From Bacteroidota bacterium (GTDB lineage Bacteria > Bacteroidota > Bacteroidia > JAHEXY01), in NCBI GenBank assembly GCA_023251875.1, contig JAHEXY010000004.1, forward strand, positions 130,359 to 194,358: a DNA stretch of 64,000 nt. The letters are read 5' to 3'. A program made the position numbers and the translations under genes. The notes under the pieces were generated by a model. That model did not search any database. It had not been told where the DNA came from and saw only the letters and a list, made by a program, of their open reading frames with translations. Position 1 is the stretch's first letter; every line of letters starts with the position of its first letter. Shown here one piece after another: positions 252-56,008 of this stretch.

Positions 252-3200
252 ATGTCATTGTTTCAAAAAACAGTAGTCAAAAAATATACTAAACAACTCG
301 ATTCACAAAAGATTCAAGAAGCTTATGCCCTTTTTCAAGCTTATTTTTTAAATTCTGCCATACAAGAGAACATTAGAGAAGCCAAGGAAGAACAATTTCA
401 AGAAGGATTTTTAAGAGAATTGTTTGGTAACATTTTAGGCTATACATTAAATCCCATCCCTAATTTTAATCTCACAACAGAACTCAAAAATACAGCCAAT
501 AGCAAAAAAGTTGATGGCGCTATTTTAATTGAAAATAAAGCCATTGCTGTAATAGAACTAAAAGGTACCGATACCACAGACCTTGCAAAAATTGAAGCGC
601 AAGCTTTCGGTTATAAGAATAATCAATCGCATTGTACCTATGTAATTACTTCTAATTTTGAAAAACTACGCTTCTATATCGATAATGCAATTGAATTTAT
701 AGAATTCAATTTATTTAAGCTGAATAGAGAAGAATTTAATTTGCTTTGGCTATGCCTATCATTAAAAAGTATTGAACAAAATATTCCAAAAAGAATTAAA
801 GACGAATCGGTAAGCCATGAGGATGTAATTACAAAAAAGCTATATAATGATTATTCCGTTTTTAAAAGAGAACTGCATCAAAATTTAGTGAAGCTAAATC
901 CCCAATACCAAGCAATAGAACTTTTTAAAAAATCACAAAAACTTTTAGACCGCTTTCTTTTTATATTTTTTGCCGAAGACCGACAATTACTACCCACCAA
1001 CTTGATTTTTAGAATAAACAAAGAATGGCAGCAATTAAGGCAAATGCGTATTGAAGTATCGTTGTATGATAGATATAAAATTTACTTTAACGATTTAAAC
1101 AAAGGCGCAATAGTTAAATTACCCGCTTTTAGTGAAACCGCTTCGCAACAAAAAGAAGAATTTCAAATTTTTGCTTACAATGGCGGCTTATTTGAAGAAG
1201 ATACAATATTGAACGACATAAAAATTGATGATGCCTTACTTTTTAAACATTCTGAAATTTTAAGCAATTATGATTTTGTAAGTGAAATTGATGTAAATAT
1301 ATTGGGGCATATTTTCGAAAATTCATTAAATGAATTGGATGAAATAAAAGCACAATTAGATGGGCAAATAATAGACAAAAGCAAAACCAAAAGAAAAAAG
1401 GATGGCGTTTTTTACACACCCAAATACATAACCAAATACATTGTAGAAAATACTGTTGGTAAATTGTGTGTAGAAAAAAAAGAAAGCATACAACTCATAG
1501 AAGAACAATATACCAATGATAAAAAGAAAACAAGCAAAACAAAAAAAGAACTACTTGATAAATTAAATACCTACCGCAGTTGGTTACTTCAACTTACCAT
1601 TTGCGACCCGGCCTGTGGCTCAGGCGCATTTTTAAACCAAGCGCTTGATTTTTTAATTAACGAACACCGCTATATTGATGAACTGCAAGCCAAACTATTA
1701 GGCGCATCTTTAATTTTAAGCGATATAGAAAACAGCATATTAGAAAATAATTTATTTGGTGTAGATATTAACGAAGAAAGTGTAGAAATAGCTAAACTCT
1801 CTTTATGGTTACGCACAGCCCAACCCAATAGAAAACTGAATGATTTAAGTAATAATATTAAATGCGGCAATTCTTTAATTGATGATCCGGAAGTGGCAGG
1901 GGATAAGGCGTTTGATTGGTATGCAGAGTTTCCAAAAGTATTTCCTCGTTATAAAAATAAAAAGAAAGAAAATGCCGTAGTTGAAGTTAAAAAGAATGCT
2001 GATGGAGATTCATTAGGTAAATACATTGATGATTCTCATGGATTATTTAATGAATTTCATGAACCTCCTGCACCATACTCCTATAAAGAAAATAGCAAAG
2101 GTTTTGAGAAGCATGGTTTTGATGTAGTGATTGGCAATCCGCCTTATGTGAGACAAGAATTAATAGGAAATTATAAAGATTACTTTTCTAAAAATTACAA
2201 AGTATTTAATTTTTCAAGTGATCTATTTGCTTATTTCTATGAAAAAGCATTTTCGCTTTTAAAACAACATGGTATATTGGGTTTCATATCAAATACGTTT
2301 GATAAAACAACTGCAGGGATTAATTTAAGAGGTTATTTAAAAAACAATACCCAATTTAAAAGACTTATAGATTTCACCGAAGTTCAAATATTTGAAGGTG
2401 CTACAACTTACCCGATAATATTAATTGCCCAAAATGAGGATTCAGAAAATAATACATTTGAGTATATAAAAATTCCTAGAACAACTAATACTATTACAAT
2501 TGATATTGATTTTTATTCTGCTGTTTCGGTTAAACAACAATCATTGGATAACTCTAACTGGATTTTTAAATCAAATGTGGCAAATCTCATTTTAGCTAAA
2601 ATTCAAAAGCATAAATCAATACGAGATAAATTTGGAAAATGTTATTATGGAGTAAAAACTGCCTTAAATGAAGCTTTCATTATACAAAATGACATTGAAA
2701 TTGATGAGCATGTCAAACCGATTTATGAAGGCAAAGAACTTGATAAGTGGATAACACGGCCAGCTAAACAAAAACTACTTTTATTTAAAAGTAAATGGAC
2801 TAAAGAAAAATATGGAAATGATATTAACGAAAAGCTAGCATTAGAAAAATTAAATAAAGATTATGCAAAACATTTTGAAATACTTTTACCTTTTGAAGAT
2901 CCAGCAAAAAAAAGATATGACAAAGGTGATTTTTGGTGGGAGTTACGAAATTGTGCATACTACAATTTATTTGACAAGTCTAAAATAATATTCCCAAATC
3001 TCCAGAATAAAAATAAATTTTGTTTCGATGATAAAGGTGTTTTTGTAAATGCTCCTGCTGTATTTACACCAACAGAAAGTAAAGCATTGTTAGCTATTCT
3101 AAATTCAAAATTAGTTTGGTATTATTTAACCTCTATTTGTGTAGTTAGAAATGGTGGTTATATTGAAGTAAAACCACAGTATTTTGAACAAATACCAATT

Positions 3201-3578
3201 CCTGATTTTGATTTATCAAACATGTCTCCATTGGCAACAAATGCTAATGGAATAATAGAACTAACCCAACAGCAACAAGAAATTAATACAAAATTTATTC
3301 GTTTTCTATCCTCAAAATTCATCTCAATAAATATTAATAGGAAACTTGAAAACTGGTTTACATTATCATTTAATGAATTTGCTAAAGAGATTGTAAAACA
3401 AAAATTTAAGTTAACTATATCTGAACAAGAGGAATGGCTCACTTATTTTGAAGAGAAGAAGAAAAATATGAGTGATATGCTAATTCAAATTAGAAAGAGA
3501 GAAAAAGAAATTGATAAAATGGTTTATGAATTATATGAATTATCAGAAGATGAAATTAAAATCGTGGAGGGGGAATGA
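252..3578 (+). CDS. Type IIG (MmeI-like) fused restriction endonuclease / N6-adenine DNA methyltransferase
   Basis: 1108-aa ORF. N-terminal PD-(D/E)xK-like motif VDGAILIENKAIAVIELKG (D...ExK) as in MmeI-family nuclease domains; gamma-class MTase motif I DPACGSGAFL and motif IV NPPY (VIGNPPYVRQE); long C-terminal region consistent with a target-recognition domain; no Walker A or helicase motifs noticed. Confidence 0.8.
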   Translation: MSLFQKTVVKKYTKQLDSQKIQEAYALFQAYFLNSAIQENIREAKEEQFQEGFLRELFGNILGYTLNPIPNFNLTTELKNTANSKKVDGAILIENKAIAVIELKGTDTTDLAKIEAQAFGYKNNQSHCTYVITSNFEKLRFYIDNAIEFIEFNLFKLNREEFNLLWLCLSLKSIEQNIPKRIKDESVSHEDVITKKLYNDYSVFKRELHQNLVKLNPQYQAIELFKKSQKLLDRFLFIFFAEDRQLLPTNLIFRINKEWQQLRQMRIEVSLYDRYKIYFNDLNKGAIVKLPAFSETASQQKEEFQIFAYNGGLFEEDTILNDIKIDDALLFKHSEILSNYDFVSEIDVNILGHIFENSLNELDEIKAQLDGQIIDKSKTKRKKDGVFYTPKYITKYIVENTVGKLCVEKKESIQLIEEQYTNDKKKTSKTKKELLDKLNTYRSWLLQLTICDPACGSGAFLNQALDFLINEHRYIDELQAKLLGASLILSDIENSILENNLFGVDINEESVEIAKLSLWLRTAQPNRKLNDLSNNIKCGNSLIDDPEVAGDKAFDWYAEFPKVFPRYKNKKKENAVVEVKKNADGDSLGKYIDDSHGLFNEFHEPPAPYSYKENSKGFEKHGFDVVIGNPPYVRQELIGNYKDYFSKNYKVFNFSSDLFAYFYEKAFSLLKQHGILGFISNTFDKTTAGINLRGYLKNNTQFKRLIDFTEVQIFEGATTYPIILIAQNEDSENNTFEYIKIPRTTNTITIDIDFYSAVSVKQQSLDNSNWIFKSNVANLILAKIQKHKSIRDKFGKCYYGVKTALNEAFIIQNDIEIDEHVKPIYEGKELDKWITRPAKQKLLLFKSKWTKEKYGNDINEKLALEKLNKDYAKHFEILLPFEDPAKKRYDKGDFWWELRNCAYYNLFDKSKIIFPNLQNKNKFCFDDKGVFVNAPAVFTPTESKALLAILNSKLVWYYLTSICVVRNGGYIEVKPQYFEQIPIPDFDLSNMSPLATNANGIIELTQQQQEINTKFIRFLSSKFISININRKLENWFTLSFNEFAKEIVKQKFKLTISEQEEWLTYFEEKKKNMSDMLIQIRKREKEIDKMVYELYELSEDEIKIVEGE

Positions 3579-4264: not shown

Positions 4265-4267
4265 CTA

Positions 4268-4933
4268 TCATGGCTAAAGCCCTTTATACCCTACATTGTT
4301 TTTTTCTCCGCCATAAATGGCGGAGTTAGTTGAGCGAGAACGGTATAGTTAATGCAAATAAAGATAAATGCAGAATACCAACCCCAGCTTAAAAGCTGGG
4401 GGGCATAAGAATAAGCAAGAAGTAAAATGGGCTTTAGCCCAAAAAAATAAAATATTATGGCTTTTGTAAAAATATGGGTACACGCAGTTTGGGGCACAAA
4501 AAATAGATTTCCTTTTCTTGTTAATGGAGTTAAACAACAAGTAATTCAGCATATAAAAGAGAATGCCATAAAAAAGCAAATTTATATTGATTGTATTGAT
4601 GGCCATACAGAACATCTTCATGCATTAATAGCTCTTAATGCAGATAGAGATATTGCCAAAACAATGCAATTGATAAAAGGCGAATCTACACATTGGATAA
4701 ATCAACAAAAAATTACACGAAGTAAATTTGAATGGGCCGATGAATATTTTGCAGTTTCGGTAAGTGAATCAATGTTAGATAAAGTAAGAGAATATATCCA
4801 TGGACAAGAAGAACATCATAAAAAAACAACTTTTACCGAAGAGTATAATAATTTTATAGGCAAATATAATTTTCAAAATCATGGCTAAAGCCAATTCCAT
4901 TTTTCAGTCTATTTTAATCTCCGCCATAAATGG
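4268..4933 (+). mobile_element. REPtron-like unit: RAYT gene flanked by REP hairpins and ~55-bp direct repeats
   Basis: Left flank 4268-4325 and right flank 4878-4933 both contain ATCATGGCTAAAGCC...TCTCCGCCATAAATGG; palindromes CTCCGCCATAAATGGCGGAG (4306-4325), CCCCAGCTTAAAAGCTGGGG (4382-4401), GGGCTTTAGCCC (4429-4440) lie between the left flank and the RAYT gene. Confidence 0.65.
4457..4888 (+). CDS. REP-associated tyrosine transposase (RAYT; IS200/IS605-like Y1 HUH transposase)
   Basis: 143 aa; HUH motif HTEHLHALI; N-terminal HAVWGTKNR; C-terminal catalytic-Tyr region VREYIHGQEEHH; flanked by REP hairpins. Confidence 0.8.
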   Translation: MAFVKIWVHAVWGTKNRFPFLVNGVKQQVIQHIKENAIKKQIYIDCIDGHTEHLHALIALNADRDIAKTMQLIKGESTHWINQQKITRSKFEWADEYFAVSVSESMLDKVREYIHGQEEHHKKTTFTEEYNNFIGKYNFQNHG

Positions 4934-7109
4934 TAGGTTTATAAGTTTACTATGCATGCTTGGTATAAGCTTTTCTAGCTTCTCCCAAACCGATTCTACC
5001 TTTTTTCTCCCCAATCAACATCCCGAAATAATGCTTTCAGGATTTGGTTTTAATAATTCAGGCGGAAGTGATGTTTTTAATCATTGTGCCGGTATTATAA
5101 GCGATGGAACAAGATTATTTTTGTGCGACAGGTGGAATAATAGAGTATTGATTTGGAATACAATTCCTCAAACTAATCTTGAGCCCGATCTTGTACTTGG
5201 ACAAAAAGATTTTAATACAAACGATCCGGGATCTAAATTAGATCAATTTGATTGGCCTGGTGCTGTTTCTGTTTCAAGTGATGGTAAATTGCTTATTGCT
5301 GATACCTATAACAATCGGGTTTTAGTTTGGAATACTATTCCAACAACAAATGGGCAGGCTGCTGATTTTGCAATAACTGATAATATATCATGGCCCTGGG
5401 GGGTGTGGAGCAACGGAAAAAAACTAATTATTGTTAATACCCAGCAAACGCAATCAAATGCAATAATGGTATGGAATACTTTTCCTGCAAGCAGTTCTGT
5501 AAAATATGATTTCAAACTTACTGCCGGTGGAGATTTGGGAACACCTAGAACAATTACAACAAATGGTGATTTTTTAATGATAGGTGATCACAATTCAAAA
5601 AATGCGAATGGGCCTCAGGGAAATTATGTATGGACAACATTTCCGCAATCAGATGTTGTTTATGATTATTTTACTACTGACCCTTATGATAAAAATTATG
5701 CTTGGCTACAAGGAACTGTTACTTCAGATAGTATGCTAATTGCATTGGGCCGCCAACTGCATATTTGGAAAACACTTCCAAACACATCTTCTCAAAAACC
5801 GGATATTTCATTAAGCTATAATTTTAATGGGGGAGATGGTTCAGATGTGGCAGTAGCCGGAGGAAAAGTATTTGTCTCTTGCATGAATGACAATCGTGTT
5901 TTTGTTTTTAATAGTATCCCAACATCTTCTTCGGCCCAGCCCGATTTTGTATTGGGAAGTCCTGCCATTGACACAAACACACTTACAATAAATCATTTTA
6001 TTACCAATCCGGTTCCTGTTTCTGATGGTGAGCATTTATTTGTTTCTTCTGATTTTGATAAAACCTTAAGCATCTGGGAAAATTTACCGGATTCAAGTGC
6101 AACCCCTCCCGATACAATTATTAATCTTCAAGAAGCCCCTTGGGATAACGAACTCCATGGCGATACACTTGTTTTGGCTGGAAAAAAAACAATTTTTATT
6201 TGGAAATCACTTCCCTTAAACGGCCAGCAGCCCGATTTTACCCTTCAAGATCATATAGGATCCATTTATTTTAATGAAATTAGAGGTGTAGCTTTTGATG
6301 ATAGCTATTTTTACATTGCTGATAATAATACGGTATATGTATGGAGTGGCTTTCCAACTACCTCTTCTTATGCTGATCCTATGCTAACATTACATTTTGC
6401 AAGTGTTATGAAATTATGCAGTGATGAAGGTTATTTATCAATAACCGAAATGGAAGCAGCTCCTCCCAAAGCAGTGCTTTATAAAATTTCTAATTTTCCA
6501 AATGATACCAATCCTTATAAAACCATTGAAGGGCAGAATGGATATTATTTTAATTTACCTATGCACACCATTACTTCAAACGGGCATTTATTTTTAGCAA
6601 ACTCTATTTTTAATGTTGTGTATGCTTGGAAAGACATCAATGATGCCGGAGATTTTTCAAAAGTAATTGTATTGGGCAGCGATACAACAATAGAAACCAT
6701 TCCTTGCATTGGTGATAGTACATTATTTTGGCCTGCAAGTTTAAGTTTTGATGGCAAACACCTTTGGGTAGGAGAATTTAAATTTTCAGGAAGGATTTTA
6801 AGATACACCATTCCCTCTGAATTAACGAGCATTAAGAAAATAAATACAAAAACTAATTTAGTTTCAAATATTAAAATATATCCCAATCCTGTAAGTGATC
6901 AAATAAACATAAATTTTCCGTCTATAATAAATGAAAGTAAAGTTGAAATTTCTCTTTTCGATTACACGGGAAAATGCGTAAAAAAATATGAAACTGGTCT
7001 TTTTAAAACTTTCTCTATTGATGTGAATAGCTTTGCATCCGGACTATATCAATTAAGAATTTCAAATACAAATACTGTATTTAGCCAAAAAATCTTAATT
7101 ATTAGGTAA
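4881..7109 (+). CDS. Secreted NHL-repeat beta-propeller protein with T9SS type-A C-terminal sorting domain
   Basis: Repeated NNRVLxWNTIP-type units (DRWNNRVLIWNTIP, DTYNNRVLVWNTIP, MNDNRVFVFNSIP); C-terminus IYPNPVSDQININ...GLYQLRI typical of the Por secretion tail. First 25 codons are encoded by the right REP repeat, so the true start may be the ATG at 4956. Confidence 0.65.
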   Translation: MAKANSIFQSILISAINGRFISLLCMLGISFSSFSQTDSTFFLPNQHPEIMLSGFGFNNSGGSDVFNHCAGIISDGTRLFLCDRWNNRVLIWNTIPQTNLEPDLVLGQKDFNTNDPGSKLDQFDWPGAVSVSSDGKLLIADTYNNRVLVWNTIPTTNGQAADFAITDNISWPWGVWSNGKKLIIVNTQQTQSNAIMVWNTFPASSSVKYDFKLTAGGDLGTPRTITTNGDFLMIGDHNSKNANGPQGNYVWTTFPQSDVVYDYFTTDPYDKNYAWLQGTVTSDSMLIALGRQLHIWKTLPNTSSQKPDISLSYNFNGGDGSDVAVAGGKVFVSCMNDNRVFVFNSIPTSSSAQPDFVLGSPAIDTNTLTINHFITNPVPVSDGEHLFVSSDFDKTLSIWENLPDSSATPPDTIINLQEAPWDNELHGDTLVLAGKKTIFIWKSLPLNGQQPDFTLQDHIGSIYFNEIRGVAFDDSYFYIADNNTVYVWSGFPTTSSYADPMLTLHFASVMKLCSDEGYLSITEMEAAPPKAVLYKISNFPNDTNPYKTIEGQNGYYFNLPMHTITSNGHLFLANSIFNVVYAWKDINDAGDFSKVIVLGSDTTIETIPCIGDSTLFWPASLSFDGKHLWVGEFKFSGRILRYTIPSELTSIKKINTKTNLVSNIKIYPNPVSDQININFPSIINESKVEISLFDYTGKCVKKYETGLFKTFSIDVNSFASGLYQLRISNTNTVFSQKILIIR

Positions 7110-18554: not shown

Positions 18555-18581
18555 ATAAAGTTTCAAAATTTGAAACTTTAT
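18555..18581. promoter_or_regulatory. 27-bp perfect palindrome ATAAAGTTTCAAA-A-TTTGAAACTTTAT upstream of higBA (candidate operator)
   Basis: 13-bp arms around a single central base, 29 bp upstream of the higB start; the same core recurs at 43154-43198. Confidence 0.45.
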
Positions 18582-25697: not shown

Positions 25698-25809
25698 CAA
25701 CACCCATTTGAATAAAGGACGGATTTTAATTATTTTAGTATTTTGAGATGAAAGCAATTTATTAAATACTATTTTTGCATTAATGGTGTTTACTAAATTA
25801 TTTATTAAA

Positions 25810-25895
25810 GGCTTTCTAAAAATTACAATTTTTGTGTCCCTCTCTTTGAGAGGGATTAAGGGAGAGAACATAAATAAAATAATTTTTAGAAAGCC
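25810..25895. repeat. MITE-like element (~85 bp) with 15-bp terminal inverted repeats GGCTTTCTAAAAATT / AATTTTTAGAAAGCC and internal CCCTCTC hairpin
   Basis: TIRs read directly; core TCCCTCTCTTTGAGAGGGATTAAGGGAGAGA; homologous copies at 33954-34032 and 55910-55992. Confidence 0.6.
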
Positions 25896-25953
25896 CTTAA
25901 TAATTACGAAGATAAATTATTAAAAAGAGGCTAACAAAATAATCAGTCGTATC

Positions 25954-31242: not shown

Positions 31243-33321
31243 ATGAAAAAACTCATACTCCTTTTTATACTCATATCTACCATTACCAAAGCTCAAGATT
31301 ATAAATGGACCCAATCTTTTGGCGGTACAAATTCTGATTATAGCCGAGGTGTGGTTATTGATAAAGCAGGAAACATGTATATAGCAGGATCTTTTAAAGG
31401 TACTGTAGATTTTAACCCCGGCTCAGGAACCGATTCTCATACTTCAGGCACTTATGATGATATTTATATTGTAAAACTCGATGCCTCAGGAAATTTTATT
31501 TGGGCTAAAACATATGGCAGTGCCGATTACGATTACCCCAATGCTATTGCCATTGATGAATCTGCTAATCTTTATATTGCAGGAACCTTCACGGGAACAA
31601 CAGATCTAAATCCATCTTCATCCAGTACAGATGCGCATACTTCAAATGGTAGTTATGATGTTTTTATTGAAAAACTGGATAGTGCAGGAAAATTTAAATG
31701 GGGGAAATCTTTTGGTGGAACTGGCAGTGATTACGTACGTAGTATTGCATTGGATGCATCAGATAATGTATACGTAACCGGTTATTATGCAGATGAAGTA
31801 GATTTTGATCCGAGTTCAGGCACTGATAAAAATACATCAAAAGGAGGCGATGATGTTTATATTGAAAAACTGGATGCTTCCGGTAATTTTGTTTGGGTTA
31901 CTACTTTTGGCGGAAGCTCTACTGACAAAGGTTATGGCATTGCAACTGATGTTTCAGGTAATGTTTATGTAACAGGAAGTTTTACTGATACAGTAGATTT
32001 TAAACCTTTTTCTATAGTATCGTTTGAACATATTTCAAATGGAGGTACGGATATTTTTGTAGAAAAATTAAATGATGCAGGAAGTGCACAGTGGGTAAGA
32101 ACTTTTGGAAGTACTCAAACCGATTATGGTTTATCACTTGGTATTGATGCATCCAACAATATTTCAGTTACCGGATACTTTGAAGATGTGGCGGATTTTG
32201 ATCCTTCTTCATCAGGAACAGATTCTCATACCTCAAAAGGCGGATATGATGTTTTTGTTCAAAAACTAGATGCTTCCGGAAATTTTAAATGGGCGCAAAC
32301 CTATGGAGGCACGAGTGATGATTATCCTTCTTGCATTGCTACAGATTCTAAAAACGCTAATTATGTAATTGGTAATTTTAAAGGCACTGCCGATTTTGAT
32401 CCTTCCTCATCCGGTACAGATTCCCATACATCTAGCGGAAGCGCAGATATATTTATTCAAAAACTCGATAGTTTAGGAAATTTTCAATGGACCCATACTT
32501 TTGGTGGGAGCTCCGGTGATTATGGATATTATATTACTACAGATGCTTCAAACAATTTGTATTCCTTAGGATATTTCGAATACACCATCGATTTTGATCC
32601 CACATCCGGCACCGATTCCCATACTTCTAATAACGGATATTACGATGTATTTATTAGTAAATATGGTGAGGGTTGTAACAACTCTTATGGCAGTATTAAT
32701 GCAAGTGAATGTTATAGTTATGCTTCTCCAAGCGGTAATTACAATTGGACATCTTCCGGAACGTATACTGATACCATTGCCAATACAGGTGGGTGTGATA
32801 GCATTATTACAATTACTTTAACAATTGAAACGGTTGATACATCAGTAACTTTTTTAAACAATATCTTAGCTGCAAGTGCCAGTAGTGCCACTTTTCAATG
32901 GCTCGATTGCGATAATGGCTATACTTTTGTTACAGCACAAACCAGCCAAATTTTTATTCCTACCAGTTCAGGAAACTATGCTGTAATGGTTACACAAAAT
33001 GGTTGTACGGATACGAGTTCTTGTTATGCAATTACAGTAGTTGATACGGGATCAGGAAGCAGCATTCAAGAAAATAGTTTTGAAAAAAATATTACTATCT
33101 CTCCTAATCCAACAAAGGGAGCATTAAATATTTTGCTCGAAAAAAATTACAATACCATTGAATTAGAAATTCATAATTGCTTGGGTGAAAAAATAGAAAA
33201 ACAAATTTATAGCAATACCCAAACTATTAATCTTACTATTAATGCGCCACAAGGAATTTATTTCTTAATGCTTAAAAACGATCAAGAACAAAAAGCACTT
33301 ATAAAAGTACTTAAAGAATAA
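31243..33321 (+). CDS. Secreted SBBP beta-propeller-repeat protein with T9SS type-A C-terminal sorting domain
   Basis: At least eight repeats of the form SGxDxxxxIxxDxxGNxY..G.F.GTxDFxP.SG.D; C-terminus ISPNPTKGALNIL...GIYFLML. Confidence 0.75.
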   Translation: MKKLILLFILISTITKAQDYKWTQSFGGTNSDYSRGVVIDKAGNMYIAGSFKGTVDFNPGSGTDSHTSGTYDDIYIVKLDASGNFIWAKTYGSADYDYPNAIAIDESANLYIAGTFTGTTDLNPSSSSTDAHTSNGSYDVFIEKLDSAGKFKWGKSFGGTGSDYVRSIALDASDNVYVTGYYADEVDFDPSSGTDKNTSKGGDDVYIEKLDASGNFVWVTTFGGSSTDKGYGIATDVSGNVYVTGSFTDTVDFKPFSIVSFEHISNGGTDIFVEKLNDAGSAQWVRTFGSTQTDYGLSLGIDASNNISVTGYFEDVADFDPSSSGTDSHTSKGGYDVFVQKLDASGNFKWAQTYGGTSDDYPSCIATDSKNANYVIGNFKGTADFDPSSSGTDSHTSSGSADIFIQKLDSLGNFQWTHTFGGSSGDYGYYITTDASNNLYSLGYFEYTIDFDPTSGTDSHTSNNGYYDVFISKYGEGCNNSYGSINASECYSYASPSGNYNWTSSGTYTDTIANTGGCDSIITITLTIETVDTSVTFLNNILAASASSATFQWLDCDNGYTFVTAQTSQIFIPTSSGNYAVMVTQNGCTDTSSCYAITVVDTGSGSSIQENSFEKNITISPNPTKGALNILLEKNYNTIELEIHNCLGEKIEKQIYSNTQTINLTINAPQGIYFLMLKNDQEQKALIKVLKE

Positions 33322-33909: not shown

Positions 33910-33953
33910 TTTCTCAATTATAACATTGAACTTAAAAACGTTGAACGACTAAT

Positions 33954-34032
33954 GGCTTTTAAAAAATTTATTATTTATTTCCTCTCCCTACCCTCTCAAA
34001 GAGAGGGACAAAAATGATAATTTTTAAAAGCC
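33954..34032. repeat. MITE-like element copy (TIRs GGCTTTTAAAAAATTT / AATTTTTAAAAGCC; core CCTCTCCCTACCCTCTCAAAGAGAGGGA)
   Basis: Same architecture as 25810-25895 and 55910-55992, in inverted orientation relative to the 25810 copy. Confidence 0.6.
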
Positions 34033-34033
34033 A

Positions 34034-35020
34034 TTATTCGTTAAGATTTTTCCAAAGTAAATCTTTTAATTCAGTAATACCCTTATCTGTAACTGCTGAA
34101 ATAAATACATGAGGAATATCCGGTAATTTTTTAGTGAGTTTTTTTACTGCTTTGGCATCAATCAAATCTAGTTTTGTGATTGCCAATATTCTTTTCTTAT
34201 CAAGCAACTCGGGATTATACTGTTCCAGCTCATTTACCAAAACCTCATATTCATGTTTGATATTTTCAGAATCAGCGGCCACCATAAAAAGTAAAATGGA
34301 GTTTCTTTCAATATGTCTCAGAAATCGTAAGCCTAAACCCTTGCCTTCATGAGCTCCTTCTATAATGCCCGGTATATCGGCCATTACAAAAGACTGAAAA
34401 TCTCTATAGGCTACAATTCCTAAATTAGGAACCAATGTAGTAAACGGGTAATTACCAATTTTAGGTTTTGCTGCAGACACTACCGAAAGTAAAGTTGATT
34501 TACCTGCATTTGGAAATCCCACCAATCCCACATCAGCCAATATTTTTAATTCTAGAACTTTCCAAGATTCTTGGCCTTCTTCTCCTGGTTGCGCATAACG
34601 CGGAGTTTGTTTAGTAGGCGTTTTAAAATGAGCATTACCCATGCCTCCTTTTCCTCCAGATACTAAAATTCTTTCTTCTCCTTCCTCTGTAATTTCAAAA
34701 AGTATTTTTCCGGTTTCAAAATCTTTAGCAACTGTACCAAGTGGTACTTCAAGAATTACATCTTCACCGGTTCGTCCGGTACACATACCGCCTTGCCCAT
34801 TTTTCCCATCTTGGGCAACCACATGTTTACGGTATTTAAGATGAATAAGCGTCCAAAGTTGTTTGTTACCTTTTAAAATTACACTTCCTCCTTTACCTCC
34901 ATCCCCACCATCGGGCCCACCTTGAGCGGTAAATTTATCTCTATACAAATGAACAGAACCTGCCCCACCCTTTCCGGACTTACAATTTATTTTTACGTAA
35001 TCTACAAAGTTTGATTCCAC
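34034..35020 (-). CDS. obg: GTPase Obg
   Basis: Obg fold N-terminus [21 protein letters not shown], glycine-rich [15 protein letters not shown]-binding motifs GFPNAGKST. The longest ORF starts at a TTG at 35071 inside a repeated leader motif; the GTG at 35020 gives a typical Obg N-terminus ([11 protein letters not shown]). Confidence 0.85.
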
Positions 35021-43153: not shown

Positions 43154-43198
43154 TTTGCGGTGATAAAGTTTCAAAATTTGAAACTTTATCACCGCAAA
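43154..43198. promoter_or_regulatory. 45-bp perfect palindrome containing the same core as the higBA-upstream palindrome
   Basis: TTTGCGGTGATAAAGTTTCAAA-A-TTTGAAACTTTATCACCGCAAA between convergent genes; core identical to 18555-18581. Confidence 0.45.
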
Positions 43199-45253: not shown

Positions 45254-45310
45254 ATATTTTATTTTTTACAGTTAAATATTTTTACCTCTTAATTTATCCG
45301 CGCTTCTATT

Positions 45311-45558
45311 TTGCTCAGCCAATGTCATTTTTTAAGCCCGAAAGGGCTTGAATTTTAATAACCTCTAGTGCAACTAGAGGAGAAATAAACTATTTTTTTA
45401 CAACCCTGAAAGGGTTGAATGCACTAGAAATTAAACCCTTTCAGGGTTACACTAATCTTGACTTACTTCCCCCAATTTTATTGGGGGTTATTAAAATTCA
45501 AGTCCTTCGGACTTTTTTTCCTCAGCATGGCAACACTCAAAACAGGCTGAGTCGAAGG
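45311..45558. repeat. Hairpin-rich ~250-bp repeat element (paralogue of 54292-54565)
   Basis: Shares GCTCAGC...ATGTC(A/G)TTTTTTAAGCC(C/T)GAAAGG(G)CTT and a terminal GGCTGAGTCGAAGG with the 54.3-kb element; internal stem-loops AAGCCCGAAAGGGCTT, CCTCTAGTGCAACTAGAGG, AACCCTGAAAGGGTT, ACCCTTTCAGGGT, CCCCCAATTTTATTGGGGG, AGTCCTTCGGACT. Confidence 0.6.
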
Positions 45559-51573: not shown

Positions 51574-51642
51574 ATTATTGATTAAGAAATATATTCATCA
51601 GTGCTAATCTTAAAAATCCGCATTATCCGAGTTTCAATATAT

Positions 51643-51720
51643 TTAAATCGTCTCTGGCAACGTATATTTTCTTCCTTTATTTTGCTCTTTTAAATATTGC
51701 ATAAGGGAAGCAAAATATCT
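51643..51720 (-). pseudogene. Displaced duplicate of the 3' end of the M2 peptidase gene (encodes RYFASLMQYLKEQNKGRKYTLPETI-stop)
   Basis: Own translation of the minus strand: this fragment encodes the same 25 C-terminal residues (one P/S change) and stop as the intact gene at 52332-52406, with differences mostly at synonymous positions. Confidence 0.7.
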
Positions 51721-51721
51721 T

Positions 51722-52099
51722 CTATGCAACCTTTAATTTAAATTTTGTATAAATTTCATCCGCTATTAAACCATGCAAAGAAATATCTGCTTGCGGTATT
51801 TCTTTCCACAAGATGCCTGTACCCATATTTTCATAATTATTCAGTTGCTCCATATTTGCATTTGCTAGACCAAGTATATCTGTAATATTTTTTTCAATTA
51901 TTGTTCCATTATTTAAAACAAACAGAATTCTATTTACATTTTTTTGAATCACTAAATGTGTAATTTCAAGTTTATTTGATTCAATTGCATCATCAATGGG
52001 ATCTATATCTTTAGAATAAAATTGAACCGTTTCATTTTCATTTTTAGTTTCAAGATTTTTCAAAAAATCTTCAGTTTCTTTATTTATTAAAGGTTTCAT
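51722..52099 (-). CDS. DUF2442-like protein (partner of DUF4160)
   Basis: 125 aa; C-terminal W...ADISLHGL segment resembling DUF2442; overlaps the upstream DUF4160 ORF by 20 bp. Confidence 0.55.
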   Translation of the reverse strand: MKPLINKETEDFLKNLETKNENETVQFYSKDIDPIDDAIESNKLEITHLVIQKNVNRILFVLNNGTIIEKNITDILGLANANMEQLNNYENMGTGILWKEIPQADISLHGLIADEIYTKFKLKVA

Positions 52100-52316
52100 T
52101 CCATTTGTTTATTAAAAGTTCATAATTTAAAATCACTATTTCTACTATTTGTTTAAGTTCTCTTGGTTTAAAATTACTGGCTTTTATAATTTTAATATCT
52201 GGCACTAAAATAATTTTAGCTTTACCACTAGCCTTTGCCACATGAATATGAATAGGTTCATGTTCATTCATAAAAAAATAAAATCTATATCCATTTATTT
52301 CAAATATTGTTGGCAT
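52080..52316 (-). CDS. DUF4160-family small protein
   Basis: 78 aa; MPTIFEINGYRFYFFMNEHEPIHIHV matches the DUF4160 signature (MP.I....G.RF.FY.NDH.P.H.HV). Confidence 0.7.
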   Translation of the reverse strand: MPTIFEINGYRFYFFMNEHEPIHIHVAKASGKAKIILVPDIKIIKASNFKPRELKQIVEIVILNYELLINKWNETFNK

Positions 52317-52331
52317 ATATATATAACAAAT

Positions 52332-54239
52332 TTAAATAGTTTCCGGCAAGGTATACTTTCTTCCTTTATTCTGCTCTTTTAAATATTGCATAAGCGGTGC
52401 AAAATAATCCATAATGGCTTTAGCACTCATTTCAGAACCTAATTCATCTTTTAAAACCAATCTCCAATCTTTAGAAGCTCCTGTACTCATTACTTCTTTT
52501 AAAAAGTTTCCAATTTCTTTGTTGCCGTAATAATTGGTTGAATGCGGATCTTGATGTAAAATATCTTTTGCGATGTGCTCATGAAATTGAAAAAGCAACA
52601 CATTAGCAATAGCATAATCATAATACTGTGCAGGATCATCATTAATATGTGTTTTAGAAGCTGCATCACAAAATTCTTCACCTCTTGTTGATGGAGGAAC
52701 AATACCTTGGTATTTTAATGCTAATTCCCACCATTTTTTGTTATACTGATCTACAGGTAAATTTTGTGCATATAAATTGTATTCGAACTCCGTCATAACA
52801 CCTGCAGCCCATGGAAGAACAACAACATAACTCAAAGCTTCTTTTAAAAGTTTTTGTGTATCATCTGTTTTTGTATTGGGATCTATTAATCCAAAATTGG
52901 CTAAGAAAGGTTTTTGCATAGAGGCTAATCCCATCATGGTTCCGAAAGCTTCATGAAAACCACGATTAGCGCCTTCTCTTAAAATAATAGGTACTTGTGG
53001 TGTTGAATAAGAACGGTAGTAATAAATATGTCCTAATTCATGTAGTGCAGTTTCCCACCAACGAGAATTAGCTTCAATGCTCATTAATGAACGTATATCA
53101 TCATCATGATTAATATGCCAAGCCGAAGCATGGTTATTTTTTTTGTAGCCTGCATCAAGCGGAGCGGGATACAAACTTGATTTTTCCCAGAAAGATTTTG
53201 GTAATGAATCAAAACCTAGGCTTACATAAAAACCTTCTGATTGTTTAATAATCCACTCCGGAGTTTTTTCTTTTAAAGCAGAATCAACGTTTAATCCCTT
53301 TACATCAACCAAATCATCCCATGATTGCCCCCAGCGATTAGGTAGCCAATGCGCAGGAAGCATATCCGGTACAGGTTGCTTGTATTTATTTGCCAATTCA
53401 TATCGGGCCCAGGTATGCAATTCACGAAAAAGCGGCCAAATGTCTTTTACCATATCATGGCAAACGTTCATCATTTCATCAGTAGTCATATTATAATCAG
53501 AAACCTGATACGAGAAAAAATCTTTATAACCCAATGCTTGCACCGACTGGTTTCTCAATTGTTGCAAATTTGCAAGCCCCGGTTTTAAACCTACGCCCAC
53601 TTCTTTACTGGCTTCCCAAGCTTTTAATCTTTCATTTAAATTATTAGATGCACCAAGAATAGAATCAATTTGGTTTACACTTACAGATTTGCCATCAATT
53701 TTAAAATCGTAACCAAATAGTTTTTCTGTTTGCTCATTATTGGCTTTAATAAGAGATTTTATTACGTCTTTTATGGTTTCAGGTCCACCGGCTGCAGAAT
53801 ACAAAACAGCATTGAGTTGACGAACCTCTATATCACTCAACTCATCTTTATGTTTTAAATATTCCGTTGCTTTATTAATATTATAGGCACTTCCACTAAA
53901 ATGATTATAAGCTTCACTTGCTACTTGAGCATTGTGTTTGGCAACAGTATCTCCTTCAACAATATGTGTATTCAATGCCCAATCTGCTTCTGATGATGCA
54001 TTGAGCAATTGTTTCATGGTATCATTATAAGCAACTAGATATTGATCTACTTCTTCTTTAATACTTTTTTGTTGGGTAGATGTTCCGCAAGCTGCAAATA
54101 AACAAATAGAGCTTAGAATTAAATAGTTTTTAAAATGCATACTATAAATTTTATGGTTAGAAATAAGAATGCAAAAGTAGGGAAAAGAGATGAAGCTTGA
54201 AAGGAGTATGAGAATATGAAAATCCGTTTTGCTAATCAA
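52332..54239 (-). CDS. M2-family (angiotensin-converting-enzyme-like) peptidyl-dipeptidase with signal peptide
   Basis: HELGHIYYY...LREGANRGFHEAFGTMMGL parallels the ACE zinc-binding HEMGHIQYY...LRRGANPGFHEAIGDVLAL region. Confidence 0.8.
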   Translation of the reverse strand: MISKTDFHILILLSSFISFPYFCILISNHKIYSMHFKNYLILSSICLFAACGTSTQQKSIKEEVDQYLVAYNDTMKQLLNASSEADWALNTHIVEGDTVAKHNAQVASEAYNHFSGSAYNINKATEYLKHKDELSDIEVRQLNAVLYSAAGGPETIKDVIKSLIKANNEQTEKLFGYDFKIDGKSVSVNQIDSILGASNNLNERLKAWEASKEVGVGLKPGLANLQQLRNQSVQALGYKDFFSYQVSDYNMTTDEMMNVCHDMVKDIWPLFRELHTWARYELANKYKQPVPDMLPAHWLPNRWGQSWDDLVDVKGLNVDSALKEKTPEWIIKQSEGFYVSLGFDSLPKSFWEKSSLYPAPLDAGYKKNNHASAWHINHDDDIRSLMSIEANSRWWETALHELGHIYYYRSYSTPQVPIILREGANRGFHEAFGTMMGLASMQKPFLANFGLIDPNTKTDDTQKLLKEALSYVVVLPWAAGVMTEFEYNLYAQNLPVDQYNKKWWELALKYQGIVPPSTRGEEFCDAASKTHINDDPAQYYDYAIANVLLFQFHEHIAKDILHQDPHSTNYYGNKEIGNFLKEVMSTGASKDWRLVLKDELGSEMSAKAIMDYFAPLMQYLKEQNKGRKYTLPETI

Positions 54240-54291
54240 ACCTCTACGAGCAATGTCATTAAGTTAAGGAGAAAATTAAGCCAACGCGCAT

Positions 54292-54565
54292 GCTTCGACT
54301 TCGCTCAGCACGACCTTTGCTCGGCTGTCATGCTGAGCGAACTATGTCGTTTTTTAAGCCTGAAAGGCTTTAATATCAATAGCCTCCGATTTTATCGGAG
54401 GTAAGAGTTTGATTGTTGATTATTGAACCCCTACGGGGTTCAACTGATTTGTTTGCATTTCCCCCTGATTTCATCAGAGGTTATTCAAATTTAATCCCTT
54501 CGGGATTGGGTGAACAACAAAGCATTACTCCTTAAAAAACGACATTGGCTGAGCGAAGTCGAAGC
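54292..54565. repeat. 274-bp hairpin-rich element bounded by perfect 18-bp inverted repeats (MITE-like or structured RNA)
   Basis: GCTTCGACTTCGCTCAGC (54292-54309) and its exact reverse complement (54548-54565); nested GTCGTTTTTT / AAAAAACGAC; internal stem-loops AAGCCTGAAAGGCTT, CCTCCGATTTTATCGGAGG, GAACCCCTACGGGGTTC, ATCCCTTCGGGAT. Confidence 0.65.
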
Positions 54566-54942
54566 GTCCAAAAAAAATCCTTTTGGTACCTTAAATAATG
54601 ACATTACTCTACGAGGTATGAATACGAACGGCCTTGCGTTTCTACAATACTATATGCCCTACAGGCAATTAATTAAAAATACGACATAGGCGTTAAAGTT
54701 TTGTAGAAGGCTATAGGTTGGGCATTAACACTTCCCGTAGCAATTTCTGTAGCGGCTGTTGTAATAAAACTTTACCATCATAAAGATATTATTGCAGATT
54801 TTAAAATATTTGCCATTCCAATCTTAATTGGAATTTGTTTAGCCGTACCATTAATGTATGTTACCTACAGAAACTTATATGAAAAAAACATGGATGAAGT
54901 AAAATCTATGTTAGAAGATTTAAAAGAATAATATTACAAAAT

Positions 54943-55103
54943 GGCTTCGGGAGCCTCAGCCATCGATGTAATTGGCAACTGAGGCTCTCGAAGTCACAAA
55001 AAACAAATCCTTCAAAGTTTAAAAAACCTTGAAGGATTTTTATAGAACTTGGCTTCGAGAACCTCAGCCAACATATACAAGGGTGCCTGAGGTTCCCGAA
55101 GGC
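54943..55103. repeat. Two paralogous ~52-nt hairpins separated by a perfect terminator-like hairpin
   Basis: Unit 1 54943-54994 and unit 2 55051-55103 (GGCTTCG(G/A)GA(G/A)CCTCAGCC ... CTGAGG(C/T)TC(T/C)CGAAG), with a G-C to A-T compensatory change in the stem; middle hairpin AAATCCTTCAAAGTTTAAAAAACCTTGAAGGATTT (55005-55039). Confidence 0.6.
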
Positions 55104-55112
55104 ACAACTAGA

Positions 55113-55751: not shown

Positions 55752-55909
55752 GACGGCTTAATGAGAAGATTTAAATGGTTATTAAATAATGTTGATTTGT
55801 AATTGAATTCTAAAATATGAATTATATATATAAACGACTGCAATTTACGAGCTATTTTTAAATAATTGTTAATTTTTTAGGTTAAATGTTAAGATCAAAA
55901 AGAATTTAA

Positions 55910-55992
55910 GGCTTTCAAAAAATTATATTTTTCTATTCCTCTCCCTTAATCCCTCTCTAAAGAGGGATACAAATTGTAATTTTTAAAAAGCC
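55910..55992. repeat. MITE-like element copy (TIRs GGCTTTCAAAAAATT / AATTTTTAAAAAGCC; core CCTCTCCCTTAATCCCTCTCTAAAGAGGGA)
   Basis: Third copy of the ~85-bp element seen at 25810-25895 and 33954-34032. Confidence 0.6.
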
Positions 55993-56008
55993 TTAAATAG
56001 ATTACAAC

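Follow-up and report, generated by a model that had tools for sequence, protein, structure and literature searches.

Nested miniature elements with IS4-like ends as the probable source of a hairpin-dense intergenic region in a Bacteroidota-like genome

What packs a series of hairpins between two perfect 18-bp inverted repeats, and where does such an element begin and end? The question is raised by a 274-bp intergenic stretch (54292-54565, locus A) in the 64,000-nt stretch of DNA analysed here (the window), which is Bacteroidota-like in its type IX secretion sorting domains and has a G+C content of 32.4%. A first-pass annotation had taken the 18-bp repeats as the ends of a MITE-like non-autonomous element, with a structured non-coding RNA family as the alternative, and had pointed to a paralogue at 45.3 kb (locus B). 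Our analysis indicates that the region very probably consists of non-autonomous DNA transposons (MITEs) of a single family with IS4-like ends, nested in one another, and with equal confidence we read the hairpin-rich 274 bp as an IS4-type MITE inside a REP-like palindrome, which itself lies inside an older MITE copy of the same family. The annotation was thus right about the kind of element; its limits were misplaced, and the outer element was overlooked. On this reading, locus A is ordinary selfish DNA and not a new RNA gene, and it is an added member of an already known class of MITEs.

Boundaries of the nested elements at locus A

The outer 18-bp arms, GCTTCGACTTCGCTCAGC (54292-54309) and GCTGAGCGAAGTCGAAGC (54548-54565), are 100% complementary, and an inner inverted repeat is a perfect 15-mer, ATGTCGTTTTTTAAG / CTTAAAAAACGACAT (54344-54358 / 54531-54545), which matches at 16 of 17 positions when extended. 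The inner repeats enclose five local stem-loops, at 54353-54373, 54383-54401, 54423-54443, 54461-54480 and 54493-54507, so that the nested repeat and the five stem-loops described in the first pass were all found. Compared with dinucleotide shuffles, the segment 54285-54575 folds far more stably than expected on the two strands (z = -10.9 and -9.9).

Examination of the flanks placed the true termini at the inner ATGTCGTTTTTTAAG block and not at the outer arms, since a 10-bp target-site duplication lies alongside that block. The inner element, X_A, is delimited by the 17-bp terminal inverted repeats (TIRs) CTATGTCGTTTTTTAAG / CAATGTCGTTTTTTAAG, and its interior, which contains the five stem-loops, is as a whole one long imperfect palindrome. 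Read base by base (^ marks the junction), the left junction is ...TGTCAT GCTGAGCGAA ^ CTATGTCGTTTTTTAAG... and the right junction is ...CTTAAAAAACGACATTG ^ GCTGAGCGAA GTCGAAGC... In the window, chance alone would place a direct 10-mer repeat of fixed spacing at about 2.5e-5 of positions, and the duplications of X_A and of the outer element Y are each the sole or nearly the sole repeat of their own length at their own spacing in the 64 kb. When X_A and one copy of GCTGAGCGAA were removed in silico, a 58-nt hairpin with a 19+3-bp stem was restored, with a folding energy of -25.1 kcal/mol as DNA (z = -8.4). Because X_A split this palindrome, the two halves of its stem now bracket the insert and pass for a perfect 18-bp "terminal" repeat. 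The perfect 18-bp repeat of the first-pass annotation is therefore present in the sequence, but it is the stem of the target palindrome and not a transposon terminus. A perfect "terminal" repeat can thus be an artefact of insertion into a palindrome, and element boundaries should for this reason be set by the duplication and not by the longest inverted repeat.

The palindrome with its insert is enclosed by the second element, Y, which ends in CAATGTCATTAAGTTAAGGAG (54251-54271) and, reverse-complemented, TAATGTCATTATTTAAGGTAC (54586-54606). These two ends agree with each other at about 17 of 21 positions with one gap and resemble the ends of X_A, and the 9-bp pair of CTCTACGAG around them is the only 9-mer direct repeat at its spacing in the whole window. 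Further to the right, a solitary end-like sequence, Z, appears from its resemblance to the X_A end to be left over from another family copy; a partner end was looked for and none was found. With X_A, Y and Z, at least three insertions of the same family are thus nested in the 970 bp between the genes. The coordinates of all features are collected in Table 1.

Terminal inverted repeats and abutting exact duplications were found for X_A and for Y, and a small non-coding body for these two and for the corresponding insert X_B of locus B, which has lost one end. Their sizes are 206 bp (X_A), 197 bp (X_B) and 140-356 bp (Y), and their open reading frames, all of at most 62 aa, lack domains and homologues; Pfam found no domain-bearing frame in X_A, and exact look-ups of two internal frames returned nothing. 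The 62-aa frame called at 54216-54404, already suspected to be spurious in the first pass, proved so, because it spans three different repeat junctions; the Pfam scan found zero domains in it, and zero relatives sharing words with it were found among 5.8 billion protein clusters. This spurious gene is removed from the annotation.

Table 1. Positions of the elements, duplications and palindromes in the window
Feature	Position	Strand	Description
Inner MITE X_A	54342..54547		206 bp; TIRs 54342-54358 and 54531-54547, 16/17 matches
10-bp target-site duplication GCTGAGCGAA, left copy	54332..54341		Exact direct repeat, abuts TIR
10-bp target-site duplication GCTGAGCGAA, right copy	54548..54557		Exact match to left copy
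REP-like head-to-head palindrome, major part	54292..54341		Left arm, 12-nt loop and first part of right arm; target of X_A
Leftover 3' end GTCGAAGC of palindrome right arm	54558..54565		Joins 54292..54341 to give the 58-nt hairpin
Outer MITE-like element Y	54251..54606		356 bp, 140 bp without the inner insert; encloses the palindrome
9-bp target-site duplication CTCTACGAG of Y, left copy	54242..54250		Exact repeat of 54607-54615, directly abuts Y terminal repeat
9-bp target-site duplication CTCTACGAG of Y, right copy	54607..54615		Exact match to left copy
Solitary end-like sequence Z CTATGTCGTATTTTTAA	54673..54689	-	93% to 54342-54355
Palindrome h1 GGCTTCGGGAGCCTCAGCC...CTGAGGCTCTCGAAGTC	54942..54997		Intact, insert-free; hairpin with 17-21-bp stem, z = -6.3
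Palindrome h2	55050..55107		REP-like, uninterrupted; with h1 brackets the terminator-like hairpin of the SET-domain gene
Degenerate REP-like arm GCTTCTATTTTGCTCAGC of locus B	45302..45319		Last 10 nt, TTTGCTCAGC (45310-45319), are the left duplication copy
X_B	45320..45516		197 bp; left end CAATGTCATTTTTTAAG intact; six stem-loops; right end gone, T run instead
Right flank of locus B	45517..45558		Right duplication copy TTTCCTCAGC and rest of palindrome CCTCAGCATGGCA...GGCTGAGTCGAAGG

A second copy at 45.3 kb and the case for a structured RNA

The paralogue is genuine and extends over 45302-45558. Matches between the two loci were obtained by blastn in both orientations with E values down to 3e-8, the block ATGTC(A/G)TTTTTTAAGCC reported in the first pass is common to both, and a 36-nt stretch is 89% complementary between them. 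Locus B also folds well beyond its shuffles (z = -8.4 and -7.8 on the two strands). No further composite copy was found by blastn in the 64-kb window, in which only A and B match each other. The layout of B is GCTTCTATTTTGCTCAGC ^ CAATGTCATTTTTTAAG - six stem-loops - TTTT ^ CCTCAGCATGGCA...GGCTGAGTCGAAGG, the outer parts being those of the palindrome. The flanking 10-mers, TTTGCTCAGC and TTTCCTCAGC, match at 9 of 10 positions, and the duplication overlaps the T run. Because its right terminal repeat is missing, B is immobile. The left junction of B, GCTCAGC^CAATGTC, is the same as the corresponding junction when A is reverse-complemented, and the segment 45517-45558 lines up base by base with 54292-54341 read on the opposite strand. 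The interior of B aligns to X_A about equally well in either orientation because that interior is itself palindromic; an argument from a single deletion favours an arrangement in which the inserts of A and B have the same orientation and the palindromes around them opposite ones. Judged from this alignment, two independent insertions at the same 10-bp site are favoured for A and B.

The two copies also share the order of their five and six hairpins and the unpaired linkers between them, for example AATA[AG]CCTC and GGTTATT[AC]AAATT. This bears on a BIME-like mosaic, in which independent small palindromic units would have piled up between genes, in permissive DNA, without making up one transposable unit. 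Such a mosaic would accommodate the 970-bp intergenic region with its at least four kinds of palindromic unit and a genome abundant in such hairpins and repeats, but the common order and linkers point to descent from one element and not to accretion, and exact duplications abutting terminal repeats are not expected from accretion either; we regard the mosaic as highly improbable.

Within the stems, 7-9 base pairs are kept between A and B through compensatory double substitutions; two sequences do not suffice to tell selection apart from palindrome-correcting mutation. Compensatory stem changes of this kind are not predicted by the neutral decay of selfish DNA, and they count against the MITE reading.

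They are also what would be expected of a structured non-coding RNA family, cis-regulatory or small, in which the multi-hairpin fold would be the product and the repeats its helices. The extremely stable folds (z = -8 to -11), several loops of the RNA-typical UUCG and GAAA kinds and the position of B, which would be transcribed as part of a probable sigma-factor operon, speak for such a family, but the covariation between A and B carries little weight because it comes from only two sequences. The strands fold equally well, so that neither is singled out, and the orientation to the flanking genes is inconsistent. The covariance-model search proposed in the first pass gave no Rfam match in the whole window at gathering thresholds and, at permissive thresholds on the A and B loci, only microRNA-like long-hairpin noise; zero Rfam families were thus found at either setting. 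Conservation outside the strain was not found in scans of GTDB and JGI, locus A lies upstream of a promoter-like site and downstream of a terminator-like hairpin, and the ends are explained by terminal repeats and target duplications, which are transposon hallmarks. Taken together, these points make an RNA family very improbable and leave the MITE reading as the one that we follow.

As to the surroundings, the terminator-like hairpin that precedes A belongs to the SET-domain gene (55005-55039, minus strand), and the promoter-like site that follows it belongs to the M2-peptidase gene, with a Bacteroidetes-type -7 motif, TACTTTTG, readable on the minus strand at 54177-54170. Lying between these two sites, A is therefore placed in what is presumably a neutral spacer. 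Locus B lies in the 322 bp that separate the gene for an ECF sigma factor from the one downstream, which encodes a 451-aa outer-membrane beta-barrel protein, and it contains four terminator-like sites against 0.2 expected; B may affect read-through to the gene downstream of the sigma factor. For the 451-aa protein, no relative was found at E <= 1e-10, and the lineage appears isolated. Two other genes of the window, encoding 1053-aa and 477-aa proteins, were considered as SusC/SusD, but this was rejected, since they belong to efflux systems as AcrB-type and OEP components. Small GC-rich hairpins abound in the genome, which also holds another palindromic repeat family.

The target palindrome and its REP-like relatives

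The restored target hairpin has relatives in its own neighbourhood: h1 and h2, 400-500 bp to its right, are of the same design, with the pattern GGCTTCG..CCTCAGCC - loop - CTGAGG..CGAAG. The 17-mer CTTCGACTTCGCTCAGC was found on 61 IMG/VR contigs of very different base compositions, often in head-to-head pairs 20-35 nt apart, and a similar pair is also present in Sphingomonas plasmids. The hairpin with GAGCGAAGTCGA accordingly occurs in the Bacteroidota-like window, in Sphingomonas plasmids and in both GC-rich and AT-rich viral contigs. Covariation was assayed on 76 distinct units collected with the 12-mer GAGCGAAGTCGA as the search anchor, so that the invariance of the GAGCGAAGTCGA apex is by construction. 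To each side of GAGCGAAGTCGA, 4-6 bases pair and covary, within stems of 4-7 bp: the covariation score was 0.516 compared with 0.164 after shuffling, 0 of 500 shuffles reached the observed value, and sliding the partners by 1-3 columns lowered the score to 0.07-0.19. Short heads stand 5' of the stem, with CGTTC, TGTCA, GCTCA and CGTCA common, and no CCA tail was seen in the REP-like units. On account of the shared design, the head-to-head pairs, the covarying stems and the heads, we assign these units to a REP-like hairpin family. No Rfam family covers the unit in gathering or permissive searches of 11 loci carrying it, and literal literature searches for the motif GAGCGAAGTCGA and its typical translations returned nothing. 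The motif is possibly undescribed and cross-phylum, and with its GAGCGAAGTCGA apex and covarying stems in unrelated genomes it may outrank the insert in interest.

The REP-like character of the arms raises a REPIN-like alternative, namely that two inverted REP-like units with a 238-bp structured spacer form one non-autonomous unit, which a REP-associated tyrosine (Y1) transposase would copy entire and without duplicating the target. The 18-bp arms are indeed head-to-head units of the REP-like hairpin family, A and B carry REP arms and insert in the same register, a Y1 transposase gene is present in the window (4457-4888; Pfam Y1_Tnp, E = 2e-23), and REP dimers with structured spacers have been described (Di Nocera et al. 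2013, PMC3733652). Against copying as one unit, the insert has its own 17-bp TIRs and an exact 10-bp duplication, which Y1 transposition does not make, and under single-deletion parsimony its orientation to the REP arms seems to be reversed from A to B, in favour of independent insertions. Moreover, the Y1 gene is flanked by the unrelated hairpins GGCTAAAGCC and CTCCGCCATAAATGGCGGAG and not by GAGCGAAGTCGA units, and its motif Y---Q--HH is that of subclass 1.2, which is reported not to be REP-associated (PMC6006769). Neither the units, which do not flank the Y1 gene, nor the insert, with its TIRs and duplication, are thus those of a RAYT-mobilised REP or REPIN, and this alternative is quite improbable for the composite. 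The 58-nt target palindrome itself, which has neither TIRs nor a target duplication, could be a REP dimer.

With the palindrome read as the target of a MITE, the fact that a REP-like palindrome was hit twice at one and the same 10-bp site gives a hint, from just these two events, of specificity for hairpin-forming repeats. We consider two further possibilities rather unlikely: that the insert family is site-specific for the GCTGAGCGAA core of the REP-like hairpin, and that the compensatory changes in A and B reflect selection on the stem-loops. The former would mean a transposon that has specialised on a structured DNA/RNA motif shared across phyla and possibly undescribed, and the latter may mean, for example, that B has been exapted as an attenuator within the operon, ahead of the gene that follows the one for the ECF sigma factor.

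IS4-like ends, proposed history and comparison with known systems

The six end-like sequences share the pattern C[AT]ATGTC[AG]T...TTAAG. For the IS4 family, duplications of about 10 bp are reported family-wide, with an end signature of -AATR--------WTW---- and duplications of 10-13 bp for the IS4 subgroup, and CA------T and 8-10 bp for the IS4Sa subgroup (PMC2266710, Table 1 for the subgroups); some IS4-subgroup members show marked target specificity (PMC2266710). The left end of Y matches every specified position of the IS4-subgroup signature and is the only end with a full fit, whereas the ends of X and that of B conform to -AATR / CA------T with WTW off by one base (a 1-nt shift is needed), and two ends begin CTATG. 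Compared with the E. coli K-12 IS4 ends, TAATGCCAGTCAGTTAAGCAAC and TAATGCCGATCAGTTAAGGATC, the left end of Y matches each at 15 of 21 positions ungapped (P ~1.5e-5 against random 21-mers of the window). The duplications, 10 bp for X_A and 9 bp for Y, fall within the 8-13 bp of IS4-type elements. From the end signature and the duplication length, the elements are therefore placed with the IS4 family, a placement that fits by these two features only. A match to a known insertion-sequence end, which the first-pass annotation had set against its own reading, is thus present.

No full-length IS4-family element or DDE transposase was found in the window by tblastn with InsG, by Pfam or in the gene tables, the Pfam scans covering open reading frames of at least 170 aa not already in those tables. 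The window holds no transposase gene of theirs, and the elements are non-autonomous. Two further end-like matches, at 250 and 2697, fall within the coding sequence of a type IIG restriction-modification enzyme and were rejected as chance.

In the 64 kb, two elements are complete, one copy has decayed and one end stands alone. Short-read (k=31) assemblies of the same strain break off at 54277, 54644 and 45479-45496, where the elements lie; these breaks fit repeats elsewhere in the genome, or polymorphism, and the nested MITEs would explain why the contigs stop there. Pattern searches for other copies returned two chance matches in coding DNA and no real copy among the GTDB species genomes (GCTCAGCCAATGTCNTTTTTT), zero matches in JGI metagenomes for each of ATGTCRTTTTTTAAGCCNGAAAGG and ATGTCRTTTTTTAAG-N157-187-CTTAAAAAAYGACAT, only unrelated terminators or coding matches without an inverted partner in IMG/VR (TCGCTCAGCCAATGTC and CAATGTCRTTTTTTAAG), and chance matches only in plasmids (blastn). 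No empty site was found among contigs with the flanking genes, which are all of the same strain and identical in sequence.

From these observations we propose a history in which Y would first have inserted into intergenic DNA between the SET-domain and M2-peptidase genes, with duplication of CTCTACGAG; the 58-nt REP-like palindrome would then have arrived in the centre of Y, or would already have been part of it; and X_A (206 bp) would finally have inserted into the right arm of the palindrome, with duplication of GCTGAGCGAA. Locus B would have arisen likewise, from an insert of this kind at the matching 10-bp position in a palindrome copy that has diverged. An IS4-family DDE transposase, of the kind marked by the YREK motif and supplied by a full-length element elsewhere in the genome, may bind both TIRs and excise the element, which would be joined to target cuts staggered by 9-10 bp, and repair would yield the duplication. 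The targets are short palindromes (GCTGAGC, CTC-TAC-GAG), which suggests that sites with symmetry or the ability to form hairpins are preferred. The interior, rich in hairpins, would provide a fold-back structure that may help to bring the ends together, and where it is transcribed it may partly terminate transcription or stabilise the RNA. The predicted empty sites would read ...TGTCATGCTGAGCGAAGTCGAAGC... / ...GGCTGTCATGCTGAGCGAAGTCGAAGCGTCC... without X_A and ...AAACCTCTACGAGGTATG... / ...ATCAAACCTCTACGAGGTATGAATACG... without Y.

Among known systems, the elements are like those of the IS4 and IS4Sa subgroups in TIRs that start 5'-CA/-AATG, with TTAAG about 14 nt in, and in duplications of 9-10 bp, about one helical turn, which stand at the short end of the 10-13 bp range of the IS4 subgroup. 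They differ in that no transposase gene or cognate full-length element is in view, in their host, which is an uncultured Bacteroidota-like lineage, and in an interior that is a palindrome of smaller palindromes. The IS231-derived MIC231 cassettes of Bacillus cereus are miniature IS4-family derivatives. In enterobacteria, IS1397 and ISKpn1 insert specifically into REP (BIME) palindromes; they are autonomous IS3-family elements with 3-4-bp duplications. The likeness to them lies in the REP palindrome as the target and in an insert that ends up bracketed by the palindrome arms, whereas the insert here is non-autonomous and has IS4-like ends and 10-bp duplications.

As a head-to-head pair of REP-like units, the target palindrome is like the REPINs and REP dimers of Bertels & Rainey 2011 (PMC3116915) and of Di Nocera et al. 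2013 (PMC3733652). The CGTC-tagged REPs described in PMC3733652 have a CGTC/TGTC head, an 8-9-bp stem starting with AT, a 4-5-nt loop and a CCA tail; the heads TGTCA, CGTTC and GCTCA recall this "CGTC/TGTC" tag, whereas the unit here has a 4-7-bp covarying stem and a 12-nt apex (the search anchor) in place of the 8-9-bp stem and 4-5-nt loop. Since the comparison is with a text description and not with a consensus sequence, the resemblance is a lead and not a membership. Unlike in REPINs, the unit here flanks no RAYT gene, and the hairpin-dense insert has TIRs and duplications of its own.

MITEs themselves are already known in Bacteroidota, from Porphyromonas gingivalis (PMC4596501) and Cardinium (PMC9769881), and an IS4-type MITE family is now documented in a poorly sampled Bacteroidota-like lineage. 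No sequence similarity links the present elements to known hairpin MITEs, from which they also differ in duplication length and end signature and in having 2-4 copies or fragments visible here. Correia/NEMIS, BOX, RUP and ERIC are modular hairpin-forming bacterial MITEs. With such elements the family shares its small size, intergenic position, non-coding character, terminal repeats, predicted stable folds and a location that is often co-transcribed with its neighbours.

Distribution and form of the REP-like hairpin

The REP-like hairpin, a palindrome family with copies in the window, in IMG/VR loci and on Sphingomonas plasmids (table), is characterized by the apex GAGCGAAGTCGA, by covarying stems of 4-7 bp and by heads of the CGTTC/TGTCA type. 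Single copies, tandem copies and head-to-head pairs all occur, on GC-rich as well as on AT-rich contigs, and at the IMG/VR locus L029 the hairpin sits between phage structural genes. G.T pairs weakly favour the GAGC strand (25 vs 13), and no Rfam family was found for a hairpin with this apex.

In two sequencing runs, Logan contigs (k=31) of the same strain ended exactly at 54277/54278, 54643/54644, 45479-45496 and 55965, leaving 54278-54643 unassembled, a region that the k=141 assembly (L066) spans with identical sequence. The contig ends stem either from repeats, 31-140 nt long, in other parts of the genome or from a presence/absence polymorphism.

Positions of the features described in this part
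Feature	Position	Strand	Details
REP-like hairpin	54292-54341, 54942-54997, 55050-55107		also IMG/VR loci L005-L065; Sphingomonas plasmids NZ_CP155750/52/55
Third palindromic intergenic repeat family	25799-25906, 33935-34051, 55904-56002		~100 nt, 3 copies
Hairpins related to third family	31123, 35203, 37329		CCCTCTCC/GGAGAGGG
Long-stem hairpin	43154-43198		intergenic
82-nt direct repeat	51636-51717, 52325-52406		87% identical
DUF4160/DUF2442 gene pair	52080-52316, 51722-52099
Open frame	54706-54932	+	75 codons
Tandem repeats	31360-32630		6 repeats of 195-198 bp
692-aa gene	31243-33321
Type IIG restriction-modification enzyme, large	252-3578	+	Eco57I/MmeI-type methylase and TaqI_C specificity domains
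IS200-like Y1 (HUH) transposase	4457-4888	+	143 aa; Pfam Y1_Tnp, E = 2e-23
Y1 transposase gene flanks	4267-4452, 4878-4935		direct repeats and small GC-rich hairpins

Other repeats and small genes

The third repeat family has the layout TTAAGGCTTTCTAAAAATTACAATTTTTGT, a CCCTCTC/GAGAGGG hairpin and ...AAAATAATTTTTAGAAAGCCCTTAA. Separately, the long-stem hairpin pairs perfectly over 21 bp (TTTGCGGTGATAAAGTTTCAA AAT TTGAAACTTTATCACCGCAAA), and its central 27-mer has a palindromic second copy at 18555-18581, which is also intergenic.

The copies of the 82-nt direct repeat enclose the DUF4160/DUF2442 genes, and the M2-peptidase gene, at its 3′ end, overlaps one of them; together, pair and repeats resemble a small cassette of two genes whose insertion duplicated the end of the peptidase gene. 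Beside the solitary MITE-end-like sequence at 54673-54689 begins the open frame, the N-terminal half of which is hydrophobic (KAIGWALTLPVAISVAAVV...) and the sole standard start codon of which leaves 25 codons; it is possibly the remnant of a gene for a small membrane protein that an insertion cut short. The tandem repeats within the 692-aa gene are no mobile element but coding sequence: they specify SBBP beta-propeller repeats, in a protein with a type IX secretion sorting domain at its end.

The Y1 transposase gene

Directly downstream of the type IIG gene lie two genes, one for a 229-aa protein of unknown function and the other for the Y1 transposase. The latter gene is flanked by direct repeats (ATCATGGCTAAAGCC..., 4267 and 4878) and by the hairpins CTCCGCCATAAATGGCGGAG, CCCCAGCTTAAAAGCTGGGG and GGGCTTTAGCCC, the last with further copies at 157 and 11048. 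The tyrosine motif of the transposase, YIHGQEEHH, fits the Y---Q--HH signature of "subclass 1.2", whose Y1 transposases are reported to occur without REP association and in low copy number in Bacteroidetes and Cyanobacteria (PMC6006769).
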